The notes under the pieces: model-generated
Database searches by the model: none
The model's input: the letters and a program-made list of their open reading frames with translations, nothing else
Told to the model about the DNA's origin: nothing
Position numbers and translations under genes: made by a program
Origin: a virus
Length of the DNA: 23,789 bases
Virus genome (UHGV): UHGV-1460385
Reading direction: 5' to 3' (one strand)
In this document: positions 576 to 10,485 of the stretch, one piece after another
Numbering within the stretch: the stretch's first letter is position 1
How the letters are laid out: each line of letters opens with the position of its first letter

Positions 576-3263
576 CTATTCCACAACATCATCTTCTATC
601 AATTCAGCCTTATTTAGTTGTTCCTTAAGCTTATTCCATGCAGAATCCTCAGGCATCTGTACTCGCACAGAAACGAATTGATTAGCAGGAATGTCGATCG
701 GGTCACCGTTCGAAACACCAGGGATGTCGTTACGTGCAAAAACGGGCGAGTTATCATGAGTGCGGTGAAACGTTTTCACCAACACAGATCCATCTTGGTT
801 AACAACATAATCCAGCCAGATGAGCGGCTGCTTGTTTCGGTCCTGCGGTATTTCAAATCCACCATCAATCCCCCCCCATGAAGCATCTGCATTCAGACCT
901 ACGCAACCCTCAATCAGATATTCACCCAATGCCAGCCGTGTGACGGTTACCCCATCTGATTCGCGATTTGTTTCACTACTACCGTCTGAGAAAATCTTCA
1001 CAACCGGAGAGGCTTTTTTGATGAAACCACTTGAATCGACGGTCGTGTTCAGCGACGACCATGCCTCAGCCCAGCCTGTGTTACCTGCGCGAATAGCATC
1101 GTCTGCGTAGCGGAAGAACAGTTTTGATGTTGTGGACATGAATATCTGCAACACACGGTTTTTTGCATATCCTGACTCCCATAATGCTCCGTTACCTGTT
1201 CCTTCTGGCTGCCAGTTTGTCACCCCACCTGCAGCTCCTATACTTACACCAGTAGACCAGTCTCCAGCAAATTCTGGAAGATTTAGTGAGTTAGGTGAGC
1301 GAATTGATACATCAACCAGACCAGGGGATCCGAGAATCGACATGCTGCGGGAGGACACCTTAGTAAAAGAGTTGTACCCGCCGTTTTTGGAAATCCTTCC
1401 TGTATAATTATTAGCCCTGTTAGTTCCATTAACTGTAATTTCCCAGGTATCGCCGTTGATGAAGTCGATCTGCAATAGGCAGAATGCTGGCAGCGTCATC
1501 TGTCCTGGCGCAGATGGCCCACCTTCAAACAGTGGCATATCCTGTTCAAGATATGTCACATATCTACCTGCATCTGTATTCCGCAAATAGTCACAAATAG
1601 CCTGTGCCGATGTAAATAGCGCAATACCATCAGCCGGGTTTACAGGGTGACGGCCAGCGTTAATCACCCTTCCGCGAGGGTTAAATAACTGTGATGAGGC
1701 ATTGGATAGCGGAGTCATGTCTACTGTTCCAGGTTCATTAGATGGACAGTTAGCGCGAATGATGTTTAAAGTCCTATAATTTGATCCGCCCCCATTGTCA
1801 TAGCGAATAGACTGTAGAAGATACAATTCCTCAGAGCCAGAAATATCACAAGACTGCACCCCCTCATTTTCAGTGGAGTAAACACTCTTCCCTGAATAAC
1901 TATCCCAGTATGTTTTGAAATCTGCAGGTGACAGCAGGTACTGACCTAATTCTGAACCATTAAGGCTGTACTCAATATAACCCTGCAACCCTGCGAAAGT
2001 ATTTCCAGATCCCGCCGTGGTAGATGCACCAATACCAGCAAATATCCGTTGAGAACCAAGAGCGACACCCTGCCGTTTTGGTTTACCGGCTCCGCGACCT
2101 CCAACATTTGCATCAACCGTAATAGTCCCCATTGGACTGTAAGATCCTTCTATAAGGCTGTTAATATCCAGTGTGTTAAAGATATTGGATACACCTGTCT
2201 CAACATCAAAAATTTTCGGCCAACCCATATCCGCATTTTCGTATATCAGGGTATTACCAAAGCCACTAAACTGATATCGCACTCCAAGGCGTGTTGATTC
2301 AGTGAAGTTTGTAATCTGCGTTTTATCAACCAGCGTACGCGGATCTTCGATAGGGTAAATTCTGATAGTGCGAGATGGGCTGTACGGCAGCAGGATGTAA
2401 CGCTGTCCTGCCACTCGGTAAACGTGGATGCCTTCTGGTGCACCAACGTTATTCGGAAAATGAAGACGTGTTACCAATGCTCCTGTTACCCAGTCATGCA
2501 CCGTAACCCATACCGATGCGGGGTCTAGCGTCTGCCAGCCGATGTATACCATTCCATCATTGCTGTCTATGTAAATCCCCTGAAATCCCATGGTCGTGTA
2601 ACCATACTGATCTTTAAGATCTGCGGTAATCTCATCGTCTATGATGCTGAATTCTAATTTCCAGTTCAGCGGCCTACGCGTACCACTGACATGCCTAGAA
2701 ATATGAGACAGGTAGCTTTTAACCCCGCCTGCGATAATGTATCTATGTTTGATCTCAGTAACAATTCCAGTTGCAACTGGAGTGCATTTATAGACGCCGC
2801 CGTTTATTCTAATAAAATTGGTTCCTGTTAGATTATCCCCAATGGCAACGTCTTTTCTACTATTCTTAAACGTCCCATTACCTAAGTCAGTAACAAGCAA
2901 TGCCCCTTCTACATATTTCAATGACTGATCAGGGTCATACTTCAGCACATTAGGAAAATAGAACTGCTGCGCACCATACGCATCATAAACAGCCATAGAG
3001 TGGCCTTGCACAGTTACGAACTTGGCAATCTGTCCGTTATATACCGGGTAACCAGCAGCGTTAATGATTATTGGTTGCGAAACAGGAACGTGAGAACCGT
3101 CTTCATTCTCCACATAGACCTGAATCTGGTTTTCTGGATTTACAGGATCAGTGTCAATTTTACCGATATAAATTTTGCCATTGGCTACGGCTTTAAAAGA
3201 ACGCGCCATAGTGAAGAGTTGCGAAGGCATCGATACGATCACATTGGCTGTAATGTCTCTCAT
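576..3263 (-). CDS. Tailspike / receptor-binding protein (895 aa): P22-type N-terminal head-binding domain fused to a large non-P22 C-terminal body
   Basis: Residues 1-110 ([40 protein letters not shown]...[12 protein letters not shown]...NVLKYDPDQ) closely match my recollection of the P22 gp9 head-binding domain. The remaining ~780 aa do not resemble the P22 endorhamnosidase body. Last gene of the late operon, after ant, as in P22. ATG at 3263 with GGAG 9 nt upstream; TAG stop at 576-578. Confidence 0.9.
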
Positions 3264-3385: not shown

Positions 3386-4315
3386 TTAAAGTTTAATTGA
3401 GTGGCACGCTCTATCACGTATCGCTGCGAATGAAGCTATCTCTTTAAGTGCCCAGCTTTGCTCAGCCATTAAATGGCGAAGTGCTTTTAGTTCAGCTCTT
3501 ACTGCTGAAACGTCATACCCCGCTTTTGTCAGAATATTGATTAGTTTATACGCCGGACTGCATTCAACGAGTGCGCTGCGGTCAAGAGCAACAGTATCAC
3601 CGCATTGCTGCCTGATAATGGCGTAAGGTGCATTTTCAGCAAACCATGAAATCGGGAAGTTAATATCCAGTTTTGGCGCTGGTAACTCTTCTTGTTTGCC
3701 AATGAACTCACCTTCAAGCGGAACGCGAGCAGCAAGTGACAGTGCTTCGGTAAACTGCTCCTCACTGATTTCTTTGTACGAACATCCAAAATGGGATTTC
3801 AGTGACGACCACATGGTGATCATCGCCTTAGCCTGTTTTTCTTTTGGCAGAGACTGACCGCGACTCATGACGAGTTGTTTAATGGCTTCCTGCTGTTCAG
3901 TGGTAATTTTACTCGGCAACGCCTTTTTAGCTTTGCGTGGGTTAACTACATGACCTTTAGTCCAGTACTCGTAGAGCACATCGTCACACTCTTCCTGATA
4001 CTGGATTACCTTGTCGCGGATTTCAGGGCGGACTTTGTTTGGACTGATGGTTTGCAGCCAGCCAGCAAGTTTGCGAAGTGCCAAACAAATAATCTCACGG
4101 CACTGTTCATCACCAGGAAGCTGCATTGTGATTTTCACAATGGAGGTTTTAAACCGTTGCTTTATTTTCGTAAACTGTGAAGCCCAATCCATACCCATAC
4201 CTTCAACGATAGGTTTCATTGGGGTGTACGGCTCACCGTTGTGATTGACGACATAAAGCTCTGCGCCGTGGAATGGTACATTGATAGTAGATACTGCTGT
4301 TGCTATACTTTTCAT
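3386..4315 (-). CDS. ant: Antirepressor Ant (P22_AR-type N- and C-terminal domains), 309 aa from ATG 4315
   Basis: Position immediately upstream of the tailspike and downstream of arc, as in P22 immI; size near P22 Ant (300 aa). N-terminal VPFHGAELYVVNHNGEPYTPMKPIVEGMGMDW...QLPGDEQ resembles the P22 antirepressor N-domain family as I recall it. The ORF-track start at 4381 is TTG; the first ATG (4315) has AGGAAA 7 nt upstream. Confidence 0.7.
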   Translation of the reverse strand: MKSIATAVSTINVPFHGAELYVVNHNGEPYTPMKPIVEGMGMDWASQFTKIKQRFKTSIVKITMQLPGDEQCREIICLALRKLAGWLQTISPNKVRPEIRDKVIQYQEECDDVLYEYWTKGHVVNPRKAKKALPSKITTEQQEAIKQLVMSRGQSLPKEKQAKAMITMWSSLKSHFGCSYKEISEEQFTEALSLAARVPLEGEFIGKQEELPAPKLDINFPISWFAENAPYAIIRQQCGDTVALDRSALVECSPAYKLINILTKAGYDVSAVRAELKALRHLMAEQSWALKEIASFAAIRDRACHSIKL

Positions 4316-4390
4316 GTCAATATTTCCTAAGACGATTTGTTGATACCGAAGCCCTGACTGTTCCAGCAGTTGGGGCTTCAACGTTTTTCC
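4316..4390 (+). ncRNA. sar: sar-type antisense RNA candidate (~73 nt) covering the ant ribosome-binding site
   Basis: Plus-strand promoter -35 TTGATA (4281-4286), 17-bp spacer, -10 TATACT (4304-4309) with TGc extension. Predicted start near 4316, directly opposite the ant start codon. Ends at a long hairpin (GAAGCCC..ACTG-ttccag-CAGT..GGGCTTC, 4348-4379) followed by ACGTTTTT. Matches the known P22 sar arrangement; transcript not demonstrated. Confidence 0.5.
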
Positions 4391-4647
4391 ACTTCATTTT
4401 GAATTTGCTTAAGTAGCATATTTGTCTCGTCAAGCCTCTTGTTAATACGGTCAAGGCTTTCTACTAAATCGTTATGTGCATGTGATACTTCGTAATTTGA
4501 GACTGATTTCTTTTCCTCTATCGTCTTTGTCAATCGTTCCCCTGATTGATACATATTGATTAGCGCTGTAAAAATCACAAGCAAGCAAACCACAATGATT
4601 GCGCCAGACAAAAATTGTAAAGAACGATCAAGCAATGACACCCTCAT
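4378..4647 (-). CDS. Hypothetical 89-aa protein with one N-terminal transmembrane helix and a charged coiled-coil tail, between arc and ant
   Basis: ATG at 4647 overlaps the arc stop (ATGA). Predicted TM segment LSGAIIVVCLLVIFTALI followed by a heptad-like charged region. No family recognised. Confidence 0.5.
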   Translation of the reverse strand: MRVSLLDRSLQFLSGAIIVVCLLVIFTALINMYQSGERLTKTIEEKKSVSNYEVSHAHNDLVESLDRINKRLDETNMLLKQIQNEVEKR

Positions 4648-4802
4648 ACCATTACCCCCTCCCTCTTCAGGCTGTCCAATACTCGCTTGTAAATCTCAGA
4701 GTTAACAGATCGCTCATTCTCTTTGGCTACCTTGCGCACCAAATCCAATACTTCTTTAGGCATCCGCAAATTAAACTGCGGCATTTTTCTTGCACCTTGC
4801 AT
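4644..4802 (-). CDS. arc: Arc repressor (ribbon-helix-helix), 52 aa; below the 60-aa cutoff so absent from the ORF track
   Basis: Translation by hand: MQGARKMPQFNLRMPKEVLDLVRKVAKENERSVNSEIYKRVLDSLKREGVMV. This matches the P22 Arc sequence as I recall it (MKGMSKMPQFNLRWPREVLDLVRKVAEENGRSVNSEIYQRVMESFKKEGRIGA). GGAG 5 nt upstream of the ATG; TGA stop at 4644-4646. Confidence 0.85.
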   Translation of the reverse strand: MQGARKMPQFNLRMPKEVLDLVRKVAKENERSVNSEIYKRVLDSLKREGVMV

Positions 4803-4818
4803 ACCCTCTCCCAATCAA

Positions 4819-4835
4819 TGAACCACCGTGGTTCA
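4819..4835. promoter_or_regulatory. Omnt-like palindromic operator TGAACCA-CCG-TGGTTCA
   Basis: Perfect 7-bp inverted repeat with 3-bp spacer between the divergent mnt and arc genes. Its core CCACCGTGG resembles the symmetric P22 mnt operator core (TCCACGGTGGA, from memory). Confidence 0.55.
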
Positions 4836-4836
4836 A

Positions 4837-4870
4837 TTGAGAATGTACTATCACCGTTATAGACTGTCAA
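4837..4870. promoter_or_regulatory. Overlapping divergent promoters: Pmnt-like (plus) and Pant-like (minus)
   Basis: Plus strand: -35 TTGAGA (4837-4842), 17 bp, -10 TAGACT (4860-4865). Minus strand: -35 TTGACA (4870-4865), 17 bp, -10 TACATT (4847-4842). The two share bases, and the Pant-like transcript would start inside the palindrome. Confidence 0.45.
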
Positions 4871-4889
4871 GAAAAAACATGGTGATAAA

Positions 4890-5144
4890 ATGTCCAGAGA
4901 AGACCCACAATTTAAGTTGCGCCTTCCAGCAGAGTTAAAAGCAAAGTTAGACCAAAGGGCAAAAATGAATGGTCGGTCTATCAATTCTGAACTAGTTCAG
5001 ATCGTACAGAAGGCGTTATCTGAACCATCACCGATTGCAGGCTATCGAGACGAAGCTGAACGCTTGGCTGATCAGCAAGCAGAGCAGTTCAAGACTGTTG
5101 TGTTTGAGACACTTAAAAAGATTTATGGCAAGGATGATAAATAA
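4890..5144 (+). CDS. mnt: Mnt repressor (Arc/MetJ-family ribbon-helix-helix), 84 aa
   Basis: MSREDPQFKLRLPAELKAKLDQRAKMNGRSINSELVQIVQKALSEPSPIAGYRDEAERLADQQ... is near-colinear with the P22 Mnt sequence as I recall it (ARDDPHFNFRMPMEVREKLKFRAEANGRSMNSELLQIVQDALSKPSPVTGYRNDAERLADEQ...). Divergent from arc-ant across an operator. Confidence 0.85.
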   Translation: MSREDPQFKLRLPAELKAKLDQRAKMNGRSINSELVQIVQKALSEPSPIAGYRDEAERLADQQAEQFKTVVFETLKKIYGKDDK

Positions 5145-5680
5145 TGCTGCACACAATTCATTTCTTATGCCCCGTTAACACCGCCACTGTTGGGCAACTT
5201 CAGAACCACTGTCTCACCGCATTATCTCAAGGCGCAACTGAATTAAATATCCATATATCAAGTCAGGGAGGGGAAACAGCCGCTGGCTTTACTGCGTATA
5301 ACTTTCTTAAGTCACTCCCTGTTACCGTTAGAACTCACAACATAAGCAATGTTGAATCCATAGCTAATATCGTTTTCCTGGCTGGCTCAGAACGTTTCGC
5401 AAACCCATTATCAAGATTCCTGTTACATCCTCTATTATGGTGCTTTGCCTCCCCAGCCGCCGACCATGCCAGATTGAGAGAGTACGGGAAATGCCTCGAT
5501 AACGATCTTGATCGCTTCGTTGAGACGTTCAATATCGACATCGGAACCCATATTAGGTGGGCATCCCTGATAGCAGACTCGACCATTTTGGATGCTAACA
5601 AGGCTCTTGAGCATGGCATAATTAATTCCATAAAAACTGCAAGGCTGGTATCCAATCAGGCAAACTGGTGGGTTGTTTGA
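5144..5680 (+). CDS. Truncated ClpP-family (S14-like) serine protease, 178 aa, translationally coupled to mnt
   Basis: Start ATG overlaps the mnt TAA (TAATG). By-eye alignment to E. coli ClpP: NIHISSQGGETAAG vs YINSPGGVITAG; SNVESIANIVFLAG vs GQAASMGAFLLTAG (Ser); RFLLHPL vs RVMIHQPL (His); ILDANKALEHGII vs FLSAPEAVEYGLV with an upstream Asp. Ser-His-Asp spacing matches. The ~25 N-terminal residues of ClpP are absent. Confidence 0.75.
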   Translation: MLHTIHFLCPVNTATVGQLQNHCLTALSQGATELNIHISSQGGETAAGFTAYNFLKSLPVTVRTHNISNVESIANIVFLAGSERFANPLSRFLLHPLLWCFASPAADHARLREYGKCLDNDLDRFVETFNIDIGTHIRWASLIADSTILDANKALEHGIINSIKTARLVSNQANWWVV

Positions 5681-5704
5681 TGGGTAAATCATGAATACTC
5701 CTTA

Positions 5705-5730
5705 TAAAAAACCCGCGATTAAGCGGGTTT
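5705..5730. terminator. Bidirectional intrinsic terminator between the convergent ClpP-like gene and the minus-strand antirepressor operon
   Basis: AAAAAA-CCCGC-GATTAA-GCGGG-TTT. Strong U-run for the minus-strand transcript, weaker (TTT) for the plus-strand one. Confidence 0.7.
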
Positions 5731-5736
5731 AGTTGG

Positions 5737-5958
5737 TTAGTTATCAAAAAGTCCGTACGTTTCTTCTTCTTCAGGTGTAAGGGGAAGAATCTCTACTCTA
5801 TCTATAGATACCTTTTCAATGTACCCATGAGGTCTACTTAAAATTAAAGCTCTCTCATGCCACAGAACTCCAAGAATGTGATACCTCCCAGCATCGCCTT
5901 TTACCCTGGCTCTTCCTTTGATTCTTGGCGGCATAATGCCATATTTTTTCTTTGCCAT
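5737..5958 (-). CDS. Hypothetical 73-aa protein, last gene of the minus-strand antirepressor operon
   Basis: ATG at 5958 overlaps the upstream TAA (TAATG); basic N-terminus, acidic C-terminus; followed by the terminator at 5705-5730. No family recognised. Confidence 0.45.
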   Translation of the reverse strand: MAKKKYGIMPPRIKGRARVKGDAGRYHILGVLWHERALILSRPHGYIEKVSIDRVEILPLTPEEEETYGLFDN

Positions 5959-6686
5959 TATGCAACATTACTCCCATGAATCAGGTGTTGTAGAGCTTTA
6001 ACACCTTCCGCATTGTAGCGGAATGCTTCCACCTGTTTGCTGGAATGTGCAGATTTATCCAGGAAGAACTTCCCGTACTGCTCAGTTTTGAGGTTGTTTG
6101 CGTTAGCAATGCGACCAATCTTGTTGGCCGTTACTCCAAGCTGCTCTGCAACCTCCCCTGCTGAGTAGTAATGCTCTTCTATTGCTGGAAGAGGTATTGC
6201 ATTAAAACCAACGATCGGGTTGATTATGCTTGCTGCCGCAGTCTGCTTTGCTTCCGGCGCAAGATTTGGCATCAAATCGAACAGATTGGTAACAGCTTCA
6301 ACCGTCATTTTCAATGTTCGCGCCTGGCGATACTCAACAAGTCCACTCGACGATTTACCGCTTTTAATGTGCGCTTCTTGCATACTTTCAAGTTGGTCTA
6401 CAAGTGAGCGGCGAACAGCTTTAGATTCACGAGCAGCCACTCGAAGGGCTTGCTTAATTGACATAACAACTTTTTCAGAAGTTGTCTTGTTTGATTTTTG
6501 AACTACGAAAATTTCGTAGTGCTCACCTTCAAGTTCATCCTTAATGCGTGCAATAAAGTCGTTATTTCGGACTTCTTTTTCCCCGCACTGTCTACGAGCA
6601 TGATTGACCATCTCTAACAGGTACTGGCTATCAATGGTTTTATCCGTGACAACGGATCCGATGTTTGCTACATTCTTAAAAGTCAT
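5958..6686 (-). CDS. Rha-like N-domain plus KilA-C-like C-domain protein (antirepressor-family regulator), 242 aa from ATG 6686
   Basis: N-terminal TIDSQYLLEMVNHARRQCGEKEVRNNDFIARIKDEL...HYEIFVVQKS resembles the Rha family. C-terminal YSAGEVAEQLGVTANKIGRIANANNLKTEQYGKFFLDKS resembles KilA-C-type antirepressor C-domains. AAGGA 7 nt upstream of ATG 6686; the track start at 6737 is GTG and would run through a terminator hairpin. Confidence 0.65.
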   Translation of the reverse strand: MTFKNVANIGSVVTDKTIDSQYLLEMVNHARRQCGEKEVRNNDFIARIKDELEGEHYEIFVVQKSNKTTSEKVVMSIKQALRVAARESKAVRRSLVDQLESMQEAHIKSGKSSSGLVEYRQARTLKMTVEAVTNLFDLMPNLAPEAKQTAAASIINPIVGFNAIPLPAIEEHYYSAGEVAEQLGVTANKIGRIANANNLKTEQYGKFFLDKSAHSSKQVEAFRYNAEGVKALQHLIHGSNVA

Positions 6687-6724
6687 TAGGCATTCCTTAT
6701 GTGGTAGTAAGGGTGTGACATAGG

Positions 6725-6755
6725 CCGCCAGCAGCACACTGGCGGTTTTCTTTTT
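6725..6755 (+). terminator. Orphan plus-strand intrinsic terminator in the Bro-N / Rha-like intercistronic gap
   Basis: CCGCCAG-cagcaca-CTGGCGG followed by TTTTCTTTTT. Canonical geometry. There is no annotated plus-strand gene upstream, so it would terminate an antisense transcript. Confidence 0.6.
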
Positions 6756-6774
6756 GCGCAGTCCGGCGCACCAA

Positions 6775-7401
6775 TCAATGAATCCATTCCTCGCCGCGAA
6801 GTTTTGCCAGCATTGGCTGAGCGTTCTTTACGACAAAATTGTTGGTATCAAGATTCTTCATTTCACGAAGAAGTGATTTCTTGGTTTCTTCTGACATGTA
6901 GCGAGTCTCATATGCAATATCGTAAATCCTTCCTGAAAGCTCAGAACCAATTTGCTTCATTCCTGGGTAGATGTGTTTGCACATTTGTTGACTCTTCTCC
7001 ATCCACAATTGTAAGTAGCAGAGATTAACCAGTTCTTCGTCAGTAAACTGTTTTGCAATCGGTGAGCATTCTGCCTGCCGATCCAAAATATCCAGCACCC
7101 AGCGGCGGAACTCTTTGGCTACCGGAGTGCGAGCAAACATCGCGATTAGGTGGGCACCGCGTAGTGAGAAAACTCGCACTTTTTTGCGATAATTTCCTGA
7201 GGTACTCACTTCGAGTACCTGAGTCATTCCGGCGCTAAACTCATCGCTATACTTGTTATAAATCATTGTTACTGCACGACTATTTGCGTATTTAAGTGCA
7301 GATGCAATATTAGATGATGTAAACCAAACACCATGCATATCACGGGTGGGCACCAACTCAACTCCGTGGAAGTTGTAATCTGATTTTGCTACAATATTCA
7401 T
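6775..7401 (-). CDS. Bro-N domain antirepressor-like protein, 208 aa from ATG 7401
   Basis: NFHGVELVPTRDMHGVWFTSSNIASALKYANSRAVTMIYNKY...KKVRVFSLRGAHLIAMFARTPVAKEFRRWVLDIL fits the Bro-N prophage antirepressor pattern. AGGAAA 6 nt upstream of ATG 7401; the track start at 7506 is TTG. Confidence 0.8.
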   Translation of the reverse strand: MNIVAKSDYNFHGVELVPTRDMHGVWFTSSNIASALKYANSRAVTMIYNKYSDEFSAGMTQVLEVSTSGNYRKKVRVFSLRGAHLIAMFARTPVAKEFRRWVLDILDRQAECSPIAKQFTDEELVNLCYLQLWMEKSQQMCKHIYPGMKQIGSELSGRIYDIAYETRYMSEETKKSLLREMKNLDTNNFVVKNAQPMLAKLRGEEWIH

Positions 7402-7476
7402 GTTAGTTTCCTTGCATACGGTTACTGACATAGAGGCCCGGTTTGTGTTCGCGCACTGCCGGGCTTCACTATTTTT
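7402..7476 (+). ncRNA. Second sar-like antisense RNA candidate, opposite the Bro-N gene start
   Basis: Extended -10 TGcTACAAT at 7387-7395 on the plus strand, ending 3 nt before the complement of the Bro-N ATG (same geometry as at ant). Hairpin GCCCGG..CCGGGC (7436-7464) followed by U-rich TTCACTATTTTTATT. Weak -35, and the U-tract is interrupted. Confidence 0.35.
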
Positions 7477-7648
7477 ATTGGATGACAACATCGCCCTTTG
7501 CCTCAAGTTTCATCAATAACTCCATTCGATAAGCTATCTCTGCCTGAATTGACCTATGGCATCTTTTTGCTGATTCGCGGATATGTGAATCAACCTTTTC
7601 TGTAAAACGAACCTGACGCGGCTTGATGGAAGATATCTTTTCAGTCAT
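7475..7648 (-). CDS. Arc-like ribbon-helix-helix regulator, 57 aa; absent from the ORF track
   Basis: Translation by hand: MTEKISSIKPRQVRFTEKVDSHIRESAKRCHRSIQAEIAYRMELLMKLEAKGDVVIQ. Pattern of beta-strand (RQVRFTEKV) then two helices with RS-I-EI motif is typical of Arc/CopG. GGAG 6 nt upstream of ATG 7648; TAA at 7475-7477. Confidence 0.7.
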   Translation of the reverse strand: MTEKISSIKPRQVRFTEKVDSHIRESAKRCHRSIQAEIAYRMELLMKLEAKGDVVIQ

Positions 7649-7697
7649 TATGCACTCCTGTTTTTAAAAAACTCATAATCTCACTTTTTGTAGTTTG

Positions 7698-7726
7698 ATT
7701 ATTCACTCACACTCAGCATGAGTCAA
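7698..7726 (-). promoter_or_regulatory. Pant-like promoter for the Arc-like / Bro-N operon
   Basis: Minus strand -35 TTGACT (7726-7721), 17-bp spacer containing tandem CACTCA repeats, -10 AATAAT (7703-7698). Confidence 0.4.
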
Positions 7727-7747
7727 TGAATTTTTTATGGTGAACTA

Positions 7748-8389
7748 ATGAATTTTGACGATCAATTCCCATCAAGAGTATCTCTGGCAAGACAGTCCAG
7801 GGGTATGACGCAGGCGCAGTTGTCAAAATTAGCTGGTGTTGTTCAACGTCAAATAGCTGCATACGAGGGTGGTGAGGCTAAACCACGGCTTCGGGTATTG
7901 CAGGCATTAGCCAACGCATTAGGTACTACAGCTGAGTGGTTAGCTCTAGGTGAAGGTCAGGGTCCGGGAACAAAAAACGTCATGCCTGACGTTCTGGTAA
8001 AGCAAATACCAATCCTCAAACTAGATGAAGTTATGCATTACCTAAACACAGGTGAACATTCATCGTCTAGATTTCATCCGGCAATATACAATGTTGGTGA
8101 CTCTGCATTTGCATTGACTATTGAAGGTGAAGCTATGACTACAAGTTCAGGTATTAGCTTTCCCAGAGGATCGGTTGTCACGTTCAGCCCTCTAGTAAAA
8201 GCTAAAAGCAAAGATTATGTAATAGCATCATTGGATAAAGAGCAAATATTGAGCTTCAAACAGGTTTACATTGGTGAAATAGAGACAAACCTAGTATCCC
8301 TAAACCCAATGTATCCTAATATTCTTGTTAGAAATGAAGATGTTAGTATTTTGGCAACCGCAGTTTACCTTGAAATCCCGTTGCTTTGA
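7748..8389 (+). CDS. Lambda-CI/LexA-fold repressor (HTH plus S24-like C-domain) with Ala at the nucleophile position
   Basis: N-terminal Cro/C1-type HTH (MTQAQLSKLAGVVQRQIAAYEGGEAKP). C-domain aligns with lambda CI: FALTIEGEAM vs FWLDVQGDSM (Ser to Ala, codon GCT), LSFKQV vs ATFKKL (Lys kept), LNPMYPNI vs LNPQYPMI. Confidence 0.85.
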   Translation: MNFDDQFPSRVSLARQSRGMTQAQLSKLAGVVQRQIAAYEGGEAKPRLRVLQALANALGTTAEWLALGEGQGPGTKNVMPDVLVKQIPILKLDEVMHYLNTGEHSSSRFHPAIYNVGDSAFALTIEGEAMTTSSGISFPRGSVVTFSPLVKAKSKDYVIASLDKEQILSFKQVYIGEIETNLVSLNPMYPNILVRNEDVSILATAVYLEIPLL

Positions 8390-8449
8390 TATCCTTTAGG
8401 AAGCGACACATTATCATCTGGTATCCTGCTCAAAACTAAGGAGGTTGGT

Positions 8450-8638
8450 GTGAAGAAAAAATTTGTAAACGTTGCAAAGTGCGCAATTTTTATATTTTTT
8501 ATGACCTTTTACGGATTTAGTGCCGGAGAAGGTTTCGATCGTGATGCCAATGCATTCAGTTTCTTTTGTCTGTCTATAGTGGTCATAATTGTATGGGTGG
8601 AATTAAAGCAAACATTGTTTCATGTGCTAAGGAAATAA
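8450..8638 (+). CDS. Small two-helix membrane protein (62 aa) downstream of the CI-like repressor
   Basis: GTG start preceded by AAGGAGG at 5-nt spacing. Two hydrophobic segments (CAIFIFFMTFYGF and FSFFCLSIVVIIVWV). Same strand as the repressor, 60 bp downstream. Confidence 0.55.
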   Translation: MKKKFVNVAKCAIFIFFMTFYGFSAGEGFDRDANAFSFFCLSIVVIIVWVELKQTLFHVLRK

Positions 8639-8655
8639 CCATCCATGGCATTTAG

Positions 8656-10485
8656 TCACTGCTGTGTTGCCTCAGTGGCAAGCAGCGGTCTGATGGCATT
8701 TGCAGCGTTACTTAATGCTCTTTCATAGGCTGGCGTTCCTGCTTTGGTGTTTGCCAAACGTAAGAGAGCATTCCTTGCTGCTTTTGACTCATACAAGCGC
8801 ATCATTGCACCGAAACCAGCCTCAAGCCCCATTGATACGCCAAGAGTCGCAGTTGCGCCAATCGTCCTTATCCTGTTGGCTTGCGATTGTCCTGTCTGTG
8901 TTACTACATTTGCGGCGTCCGACCTTGCTGTTTGCTGTAGAACTTCATGAAGAGCATCAAGCTCTTTCATGTGTCTCCCACTGAATATCGTGTTATAGAT
9001 CTGACCGTCAGATTGCGACTTCAACTTATTTAACTCGGTAAGAAATTTTGTTGGCGAGTCTCCTGCTTTTTCTGCAATCTTGCTGATATAAGCAGCACGC
9101 ATAGCGTTCTTTCCATCTTCACTAAGAGCTGGCCATATCCTCTTAATATCTGATGGTTTTCTGCTGAATACAACACTGTTTATTAGCTCTGGAGTAAACT
9201 CTTTTTTAGCTTTGTTGAGATTATTCGCAATCCTTTTATTAAGAACCTTATTGAAGACGTTAGAGTAGTCAGAGTTTGCCTTGACGTATCTGGCGGCCTC
9301 TCCAGCCCCCAAATACCGCGCTGCGTTATTCCTCAAATCTGCCCCCATTGCCCTCTCCACGGTATCAGTTGCGGCTTTCGCGCTATTAGGAAAAACCATG
9401 GCATCTCCCTGAATACTTTCCCTCAAGGCTGACCGCAACTCTCTCAATAGACCAAAATCTATATCTGGTTTAGCAAGTTCTTCTCGCAAATCGGATAACC
9501 CGCGAATCAAATCCTTATTTGCCACTTTCCCAAGCCTATTAGCTCTGGTAAGTACGTTGTCGATAACCTTAATAGATTTTGATGTGTCAACTGGTGTGTC
9601 TCCCATTTTGGCTGTAATGTCTTCAATAACGCTTCCGGCCGAATCCTTCCTTGACTTCAGAGAACCATACAGATCGTCAACAACAACTGATGGGCTATAT
9701 TCACCATATTTCTCAAGCTGTTTTTTAACTAGCTGACTTCTTTTTGCATACTGCTCAGCTCGCTTTGAGCCTGTCCCGAGCAAAGCCCCCTCGGCATCCT
9801 GAGTTAGGCCGCGAGTGAAAGCATTTTTCGGCGGGATAACATCAGATGTCATTGGTGTCACGCCCATCGATTCTGAGGTGGCAATTTTTTTCGCTACTTC
9901 TGGCGCGATATCGCCTTTTATAGCCGTTATTCCACGCCCTATTCCCTTTGCTGCTGCGGAAAGAACACCCTGAGCAGCAAGGTTAACTCCGGCGTTTATG
10001 GCTGCATTTTGCGCGAAATCGCCTTTCTGGTTTGCGGCTTCTGCCAGTGATCCAATAGCCATGCTTCCTGCAGTTCCAACTCCTGGAACTAAATACCCGC
10101 CAATTGTTTCTCCAGCTTGCGCATAAGGGTCTGTTGGTCGATCTACTGGACGATAGACATCGTCCAAAACCTTGTGACCACCAAGCCCCTGGCTGATTGC
10201 ATTAATCAGACTTGCGCCACCCTGCAATACGTCAAATGGTATGTTTACCAGACCACGACCAGCCTGTTCTGCAATTTGCCCTGCACTTTGACCACCAGTG
10301 AGCCAATCGCCAGCTTGTTGCATCAATGATGGTTCTTCCTGTGTTGGTGCATTATTGGCCTGATTAACTGTTTGTTGCTGAACAGCCTGACCAGCAAAAT
10401 ACTCATCAATGGCGGTGCCAATATCTTCGGTGCTCGTACCATCAGGAAAGGTAAATGTCTTACCGTTTGCAGTTACTTTCATCAT
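8656..10485 (-). CDS. 16: Ejection (internal virion) protein gp16, 609 aa
   Basis: Same length as P22 gp16 and N-terminus [16 protein letters not shown] as I recall it; last of the three ejection-protein genes. ATGA overlap with gp20. Confidence 0.9.

Follow-up and report, generated by a model that had tools for sequence, protein, structure and literature searches.

ORF62, a small predicted membrane protein behind the sieA leader of P22-like phages, and its possible role in superinfection exclusion

Gene organization of the ORF62 locus

The virus genome UHGV-1460385 was analysed as a single stretch of 23,789 nucleotides (the window) and was found to be a Lederbergvirus (P22-like) genome. It contained a small open reading frame of 62 amino acids, ORF62, between a repressor gene and the gene of the DNA-ejection protein gp16, at the position where P22 carries sieA. 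In our study, ORF62 was very probably a real gene, coding for a membrane protein that is expressed from sieA-type signals. Probably it belongs to a set of at least 13 interchangeable genes which occupy the same slot (the cargo slot) in P22-like prophages. The features of the locus are as follows, where position 1 is the first letter of the window.

8450–8638 (+): ORF62, 62 amino acids, GTG start, TAA stop at 8636–8638; predicted two-helix inner-membrane hairpin with both termini inside (N-in/C-in); PHROG 21338 (function unknown)
8438–8444 (+): Shine-Dalgarno (SD) sequence AAGGAGG, 5 nucleotides ahead of the ORF62 GTG
8420–8452 (+): the 'sieA leader' GGTATCCTGCTCAAAACTAAGGAGGTTGGTGTG, 33 bp, with the 5' untranslated region, the SD and the start codon; left border of the cargo slot
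7748–8389 (+): repressor gene of the LexA/C2 type, 213 amino acids, HTH_3 and Peptidase_S24 domains (Pfam); ends 60 bp upstream of ORF62 and is in frame with it
8656–10485 (-): gene of the DNA-ejection protein gp16, 609 amino acids, convergent with ORF62; 67% full-length identity to P22 gp16
8638–8649 (no strand): right-border palindrome (A/G)CCATCC(N)TGGC, right after the cargo stop, occupying most of the 17-bp gap to gp16; window copy ACCATCCATGGC

The original prediction had read several features of ORF62 from the letters, and all of them were present in the sequence: the length of 62 amino acids, the GTG start, the AAGGAGG, the two hydrophobic helices, and the gaps of 60 bp and 17 bp. The stop codon of gp16 was located at 8656–8658 (-), and the gap between the two stops covered 8639–8655. 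A perfect AAGGAGG was found once in the 23.8-kb window against 2.2 copies expected by chance; a single copy is not above chance, and the evidence for the SD therefore lies in its position and not in its presence. It had also been stated that no terminator lies between the stops of ORF62 and gp16, and our scan found no intrinsic terminator in the 17-bp gap, nor in the 60-bp gap upstream. A G+C-rich hairpin without a U-tract was present at approximately 8658–8692 (z = -1.7). The upstream repressor is named 'LexA family transcriptional regulator' in RefSeq, and the gp16 homologue is labelled 'DNA transfer protein' in the phages JEP4, Emek, and UPF_BP1.

The repressor stop (TGA, 8387–8389) was in frame with ORF62 and the 20 intervening codons were open, so gene callers sometimes give N-terminally extended versions of 86–103 amino acids (P0001–P0004). 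Read-through of this stop codon would yield a repressor joined to the membrane hairpin and is probably meaningless.

Conservation and predicted topology of ORF62

Homologues of ORF62 were found in E. coli, Salmonella, Serratia, and metagenomes, and their length ranged between 61 and 66 amino acids. A search of 5.8 billion proteins returned a small family, including 62-amino-acid proteins of Salmonella and Serratia with 77–81% identity, and a profile search of 1.84 billion representative proteins gave 12 matches in all, with further members of 61–66 amino acids at 32–52% identity. ORF62 matched PHROG 21338 with an E-value of 5.3e-45 (residues 1–62 on profile positions 1–62 of 62), as did all 12 members of the family alignment. 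This was the sole family match; searches of Pfam, NCBIfam, PADLOC, and the PDB sequences with ORF62 and with the family alignment gave nothing meaningful.

The exact protein was present on at least 1000 public contigs, where it was always called 'hypothetical' or 'uncharacterized'. ORF62 was found in 89 of the 5426 complete E. coli genomes, and in 89 of the 243 E. coli records bearing the leader. A scan of the GTDB species representatives gave one locus only, in Serratia fonticola, and added little because prophage carriage is strain-specific. ORF62 was unannotated in the nearest phage, JEP4 (99% identical DNA), and in phiv205-1 and UPF_BP1, and PGAP missed it in the inspected E. coli chromosomes (L181 3490–3757, L182 2487–2754).

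Across approximately 12% nucleotide divergence the homologues kept the same length, with no indel or stop codon, and the pairwise ratio of nonsynonymous to synonymous substitution (dN/dS) ranged between 0.16 and 0.42. The start codon was at the same position, as GTG in E. coli and Salmonella and as ATG in the Serratia and metagenomic homologues, and the SD was at the same distance from the start in every homologue. These observations bear on the view that ORF62 has no protein function and that its DNA acts as a regulatory or recombination element, for example by modulating late read-through into the tailspike gene. The gene 16–gene 9 region of P22 has been proposed to affect late transcription into gene 9 (PMC2629481), and the leader and the palindrome were more conserved than their surroundings. 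However, the dN/dS was below 0.45 with no frameshifts, the residues of one helical face (described below) were kept at 32–52% identity where DNA similarity was gone, and every homologue maintained the start codon and the SD. A purely non-coding role is highly improbable.

The hydropathy of ORF62 gave two hydrophobic segments, at approximately residues 5–24 and 35–50. The N-terminus had a net charge of +4, the loop of -2 and the C-terminus of +2, a pattern which suggests an N-in/C-in hairpin under the positive-inside rule. AlphaFold2 with the family alignment predicted helices at residues 3–24 and 29–61, with a mean predicted local distance difference test (pLDDT) score of 71. The two hydrophobic helices of the original prediction, which are predicted transmembrane (TM) helices, were recovered as two segments by hydropathy and as two helices by AlphaFold2. 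The family alignment contained the invariant residues K10, F14, M18, G22, and W49. The first four are spaced at i, i+4, and i+8 and fall on one face of helix 1, and W49, E51, and K53 mark the cytoplasmic end of the predicted helix 2. The conserved pattern suggests a specific protein–protein contact within the membrane.

The sieA leader and the expression signals

The leader of ORF62 was found in its exact form in 77 IMG/VR contigs and in a degenerate form in more than 120 contigs. The P22 leader matched it at 32 of the 33 positions; it follows directly after the annotated sieA promoter (PsieA), which ends where the leader starts, and it ends in the sieA GTG. The leader was also present at hkcB of HK620 and at gene 14 of epsilon34. 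The fold of the leader RNA was -4.8 kcal/mol (z = +0.58), without significant structure, and the SD of ORF62 should therefore be accessible. A riboswitch or thermosensor in the leader and a bidirectional terminator were considered and dropped, since the folds of the leader and of the ORF62/gp16 junction, on both strands, were within the shuffled controls (z from +1.1 to -1.7). Two candidate promoter elements were found.

8386–8414 (+): candidate sigma-70 promoter TTGATA-17-CATTAT, 9/12 consensus match; overlaps the repressor stop and lies at the position of P22 PsieA
8419–8427 (+): alternative candidate element TGGTATCCT, extended -10-like (TGnTATCCT), within the invariant leader

The element TGGTATCCT was invariant in all leader-bearing loci, but the search pattern itself contained GGTATCCT. 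The T(C)AT just ahead of GGTATCC was kept in nearly all of the 172 loci that carry the leader. A promoter at TGGTATCCT would free expression from the upstream context. Read-through from the repressor gene is also possible in the window because no terminator was present in the 60-bp gap. In P22, 85 bp of upstream DNA together with sieA, in a single copy at galK, gives full exclusion (PMC10883804), and this 85-bp segment includes the part common to the window. The sieA gene is modestly transcribed in lysogens and goes up on induction (PMC10883804).

The expression signals also bear on the suggestion of the original prediction that ORF62 is a toxin-like factor. On this account ORF62 would be an abortive-infection protein, latent in the lysogen, that depolarises or permeabilises the membrane on infection, or a type I toxin checked by antisense late transcripts. 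In favour, ORF62 is small and hydrophobic with a charged C-terminus; since it faces gp16 and no terminator separates the two genes, its transcript should overlap the late transcripts in antisense. Type I toxins are typically single-TM proteins of less than 60 amino acids whose translation is kept low, whereas ORF62 has two predicted helices and a very strong, accessible SD without inhibitory structure. No antitoxin gene and no Rfam antisense RNA was present at the locus; the Rfam scan of 7300–9000 gave only a sub-threshold SymR-like match (21.8 bits, E = 0.3), 1 kb from ORF62. The late antisense transcript is absent in the lysogen, which would leave a toxin unrestrained. ORF62 is stably carried on the at least 1000 contigs and the 89 complete E. 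coli genomes, and in some phages it is the sole accessory gene between gp16 and the tailspike. A toxin-like role is therefore disfavoured, and we consider it improbable.

The cargo slot

The first gene behind the leader in the 172 leader-bearing loci belonged to 13 families without mutual similarity, as follows.

hkcB-like: 32 loci
129-amino-acid secreted protein: 30 loci
ORF62: 21 loci
second 109-amino-acid TM/coiled-coil protein: 19 loci
161-amino-acid lipoprotein: 14 loci
75-amino-acid multi-TM protein: 12 loci
SieA types A/B: 12 loci
140-amino-acid protein: 8 loci
five rarer families: 20 loci in all

An N-terminal hydrophobic segment (TM helix or signal peptide) was present in 12 of the 13 families. 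The slot usually consisted of one gene, ending at -4 to +45 bp from the gp16 stop. ORF62 and SieA were found together in none of the 172 loci, and the window contained no SieA homologue, as tblastn of SieA types A and B gave noise only (E>2).

The right-border palindrome was found after the stops of many unrelated cargo families. The copy of P22 sieA was GCCGTCCTTGGC (L084, approximately 3030–3041), and the exact pattern GCCATCCNTGGC was present once each in 44 of 182 loci. The variable base of the palindrome sits in the would-be loop. The palindrome may mark the right-hand recombination border, be bound by a protein, or form a small hairpin in the RNA of either transcript. Read from its borders, the slot would act as a recombination cassette, with the leader on the left and the palindrome and the 3' end of gp16 on the right.

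A set of 151 IMG/VR loci, picked regardless of cargo, contained 12 upstream classes and 13 cargo families in 57 combinations. ORF62 was present behind 8 upstream classes, and the repressor context of the window was present ahead of 7 cargo families. This free reassortment indicates that the leader is an exchange junction for the cargo and that the repressor is no dedicated partner of ORF62. The original prediction had tied ORF62 to the repressor by co-transcription, as lambda cI is with rexAB; in view of the 8 contexts and the 7 families, the link is incidental, and we discarded a functional operon of the repressor and ORF62 as a general trait. The neighbour upstream of ORF62 was on the opposite strand in phiv205-1 and EC.P3, and there ORF62 must have its own promoter. 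The 161-amino-acid lipoprotein was likewise rejected as an obligatory partner, since 11 of its 14 loci were without ORF62 and most ORF62 loci were without the lipoprotein.

The sequence identity of the window to other phages was also observed to break near the slot. The DNA identity to JEP4, phiv205-1, and UPF_BP1 (98.6–99.2%) stopped at approximately 8778, about 40 codons into the 3' end of gp16. The break points to a mosaic junction inside gp16, and the cargo thus travels with the last 40 or so codons of that gene.

In loci with the 722-amino-acid type of gp16, a gap of 45–63 bp was observed to hold GGAGGTTAATATG (L092 4216–4284 (+); also L017, L031, L093, and L094). It opens a hydrophobic ORF of 22 amino acids, MVTVGWIIVALLVALWAKNRYY, which runs antisense into the 3' end of gp16 and is absent from the window. 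This peptide could be a second micro-membrane peptide.

A variable 'ant moron' between genes 16 and 9 has already been described (PMC2629481). The literature searched gave no account of a sieA leader common to a dozen unrelated cargo genes with two conserved borders, nor of a 62-amino-acid family as a constant neighbour of gp16 across divergent phages.

Genomic context and phage range

Every examined homologue of ORF62 was immediately convergent with gp16 of a P22-like phage or prophage, and none was found elsewhere; the original prediction had named this gp16-proximal position in other P22-like prophages as the place to look for them. In Salmonella, the homologue was located directly behind the leader, or second behind the 161-amino-acid lipoprotein (L086–L088 3483–3968). 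In Serratia it was located behind a Rap1a-like periplasmic protein of a type VI secretion system (T6SS) immunity family (L089–L091 3643–3999), and in one metagenomic phage behind a Fic-domain gene (L179 1410–1883). In two divergent phages the homologue was the sole gene between gp16 and the tailspike.

The genes of the window were arranged leftward as gp7, gp20, gp16, ORF62 (+), the LexA-type repressor (+), a 57-amino-acid ribbon-helix-helix (RHH) protein (-), and a BRO-N/P22_AR_C antirepressor (-), followed by a 259-amino-acid gene (-), a ClpP-like gene (+), Mnt (+), a P22_AR_N antirepressor (-), and the tailspike (-). The layout gp16 (-), ORF (+), regulator (+), RHH/Arc-like (-), Ant (-) up to the tailspike (-) resembles the immI region of P22. 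This region is the 'ant moron' or immI region of P22-like phages (PMC2629481). The sieA gene of P22 is likewise convergent with gene 16, where the gap is 22 bp whereas that of ORF62 is 17 bp.

The constant position beside gp16 is relevant to a role in the lytic cycle, in which ORF62 would be a lysis regulator of the pinholin or antiholin type, or a membrane handler of the ejection proteins of the resident phage. An increase of P22 sieA during induction has been reported (PMC10883804). The build predicted for ORF62, with two TM helices, both ends inside and a short charged C-terminus, is similar to that of class II holins. However, ORF62 is antisense to the late operon and outside the lysis cassette, and it matched no PHROG holin or lysis family even at E<=1. 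Sister phages with the same virion genes have unrelated proteins or SieA in the slot; since its content is replaceable, ORF62 cannot be needed for assembly or lysis. A lytic role is accordingly given little weight and is, in our estimate, slightly more remote than a toxin-like one.

Tandem antirepressor control modules were observed between gp16 and the tailspike, at 3386–8389 of the window.

Module 1: Mnt, 4890–5144 (+); ClpP-like protease gene, 5144–5680 (+); P22_AR_N antirepressor, 3386–4381 (-)
Module 2: LexA/S24 repressor, 7748–8389 (+); divergent RHH gene, 7475–7648 (-); BRO-N/P22_AR_C antirepressor, approximately 6775–7402 (-); 259-amino-acid gene, 5958–6737 (-)

In module 2 an S24 repressor takes the place of Mnt, which suggests that the second antirepressor is under an SOS-cleavable switch. 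A hairpin GCCCGG...CCGGGC with a T-run after it was observed at 7399–7470 (+), in the interval from the RHH gene to the start of the antirepressor. The sar antisense RNA of P22 has the same position and orientation, but Rfam gave here only the sub-threshold SymR-like match (21.8 bits, E = 0.3).

Comparison with known systems

The closest comparison is with P22 SieA. ORF62 occupies the same slot, convergent with gene 16 in the gene 16–gene 9 variable region; the two share the leader, the SD, and the GTG at 32 of 33 bp; both are predicted to lie in the inner membrane and are restricted to P22-like prophages; and they were mutually exclusive in the examined loci. The earlier placement of ORF62 at the sieA position is thus borne out by the P22-like layout between gp16 and the tailspike and by these common signals. 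The proteins themselves differ. The alignment of the ORF62 profile with SieA by hhalign gave a probability of 0.3% (E = 0.21, 13 columns). SieA is 162–212 amino acids long with 3–4 TM helices, whereas ORF62 is 62 amino acids long with 2 TM helices, and the cytoplasmic motif FxRYPxEAxxFNK is absent from ORF62. By homology, size, number of TM helices, and motif, ORF62 falls outside the SieA family (types A–C).

HK620 hkcB, epsilon34 gp14, and other cargo of the 'ant moron' (PMC2629481) share the slot and the leader with ORF62. They are small proteins of unknown function with an N-terminal hydrophobic segment, and their genes are convergent with gp16. The hkcB-like proteins are unrelated to ORF62 in sequence, and have 107–109 amino acids with one TM helix and a coiled coil.

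T4 Imm is a small integral inner-membrane protein that blocks phage DNA injection after adsorption. HK97 gp15 has been cited as such a DNA-injection blocker (PMC10883804). The principle proposed to be shared with ORF62 is that of a small inner-membrane protein which stops genome entry after adsorption. These two belong to other phage groups, and their target is probably the tape-measure protein or other injection machinery and not the P22 ejection proteins; they gave no sequence match to ORF62 in the PHROG, Pfam, NCBIfam, PADLOC, and PDB searches.

ORF62 also resembles a moron. Phages with syntenic virion genes may carry or lack it, and 13 alternative families were found in the slot; it is oriented against the late operon, has apparent expression signals of its own (the candidate promoters), and is dispensable for morphogenesis. 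It differs in that no terminator follows the gene and that the conserved borders of the slot permit cassette-like exchange of a single gene, which is more than is usually understood by a moron. With class II holins and pinholins it has the predicted two-TM, N-in/C-in topology in common, but not the position in the lysis cassette nor the PHROG lysis families (E<=1).

Proposed function of ORF62

We tentatively propose superinfection exclusion at the stage of DNA entry as the function of ORF62, and hold it possible, at somewhat less than even chances. The proposal is made because ORF62 has the slot, the leader, the predicted compartment, and the phage range of SieA, and alternates with it. The candidate exclusion factor of the original prediction is, in this light, a well-founded hypothesis. 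In the lysogen, transcription of ORF62 would begin at a promoter with its -10 on the left edge of the 33–36-bp leader common to P22 sieA, and the LexA-type repressor gene, 60 bp upstream, may add read-through transcripts in this phage. Efficient translation would follow from the AAGGAGG-N5-GTG signals as read from the sequence, with the start backed by the GTG/ATG exchange among the homologues. The product is predicted to be an inserted inner-membrane hairpin of two helices, in which both ends are cytoplasmic and a short acidic loop is periplasmic. By analogy with the unrelated SieA, it would then block DNA delivery by incoming P22-like phages. The target may be the conduit of the ejection proteins gp7, gp20, and gp16, or a host inner-membrane factor which the conduit needs, for example YajC. 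ORF62 is too small for an enzyme and one of its helical faces is conserved; hence binding to the conduit or to a host factor in the membrane is its most likely mode of action. The sieA gene is carried by only 22 of the 66 P22-like phages (PMC10883804), which leaves room for analogues.

The escape mutations of SieA map to gp16 (G532W, P546S) and gp20 (PMC10883804). The gp16 patch with these escape sites was observed to have diverged in the window, where G532 is kept and P546 is replaced by Ala.

Several observations weigh against exclusion as the function. Membership of the slot does not by itself imply exclusion, as the nearby cargo includes Rap1a-like T6SS immunity, Fic, and YobH-like proteins and lipoproteins. 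ORF62 is not always the sole occupant of the slot and can follow another cargo gene (the 161-amino-acid lipoprotein or the Rap1a-like gene). It has no likeness to SieA in sequence (hhalign probability 0.3%) or in architecture. The -35 region differs in every upstream context, and the promoter assignment consists of consensus matches and the GenBank annotation of PsieA, which is called 'putative' by Leavitt et al. 2024 (PMC10883804). The consensus scan found no intrinsic terminator 3' of ORF62.

Some of these points would also fit a host-directed or other non-phage envelope function, for example in transport, in stress tolerance, in resistance to colicins or T6SS, or in the modulation of a membrane protein of the host. 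Small two-TM proteins often regulate larger membrane proteins. The cargo in or adjacent to the slot includes proteins with probable non-phage targets (Rap1a-like, Fic, and YobH-like), and PADLOC gave no match for ORF62. On the other hand, members of the family occur in P22-like phages only and always lie beside gp16, even as the sole accessory gene, and ORF62 uses the sieA leader and alternates with SieA. A generic fitness factor would be expected in other phage types, whereas the 12 representatives in 1.84 billion were, where examined, all in a P22-like context. We regard a host-directed function, the main alternative to exclusion, as rather unlikely.

To return to exclusion, a wider form of the proposal is that the slot is a dedicated exchange site for exclusion genes, where single envelope-protein genes would be exchanged by homologous recombination between the portable leader on one side and the palindrome with the 3' end of gp16 on the other. 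ORF62 would be its minimal and perhaps ancestral occupant, which alone blocks the gp7/gp20/gp16 conduit or YajC. This form is doubtful. If it is true, the other 11 uncharacterised families behind the leader would be a library of new and mechanistically diverse entry blockers.

SieA is the sole characterised DNA-entry blocker of P22-like phages and is carried by about a third of them. The leader precedes at least 12 other small proteins, mostly targeted to the envelope, which gives a list of candidate exclusion factors, and ORF62 is the smallest of these and a common one. A blocker of 62 residues, if true, would be tractable for dissecting the passage of gp7, gp20, and gp16 across the inner membrane. 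As ORF62 is missed by annotation, prophage-encoded resistance to P22-like phages used in therapy or typing may be under-called.

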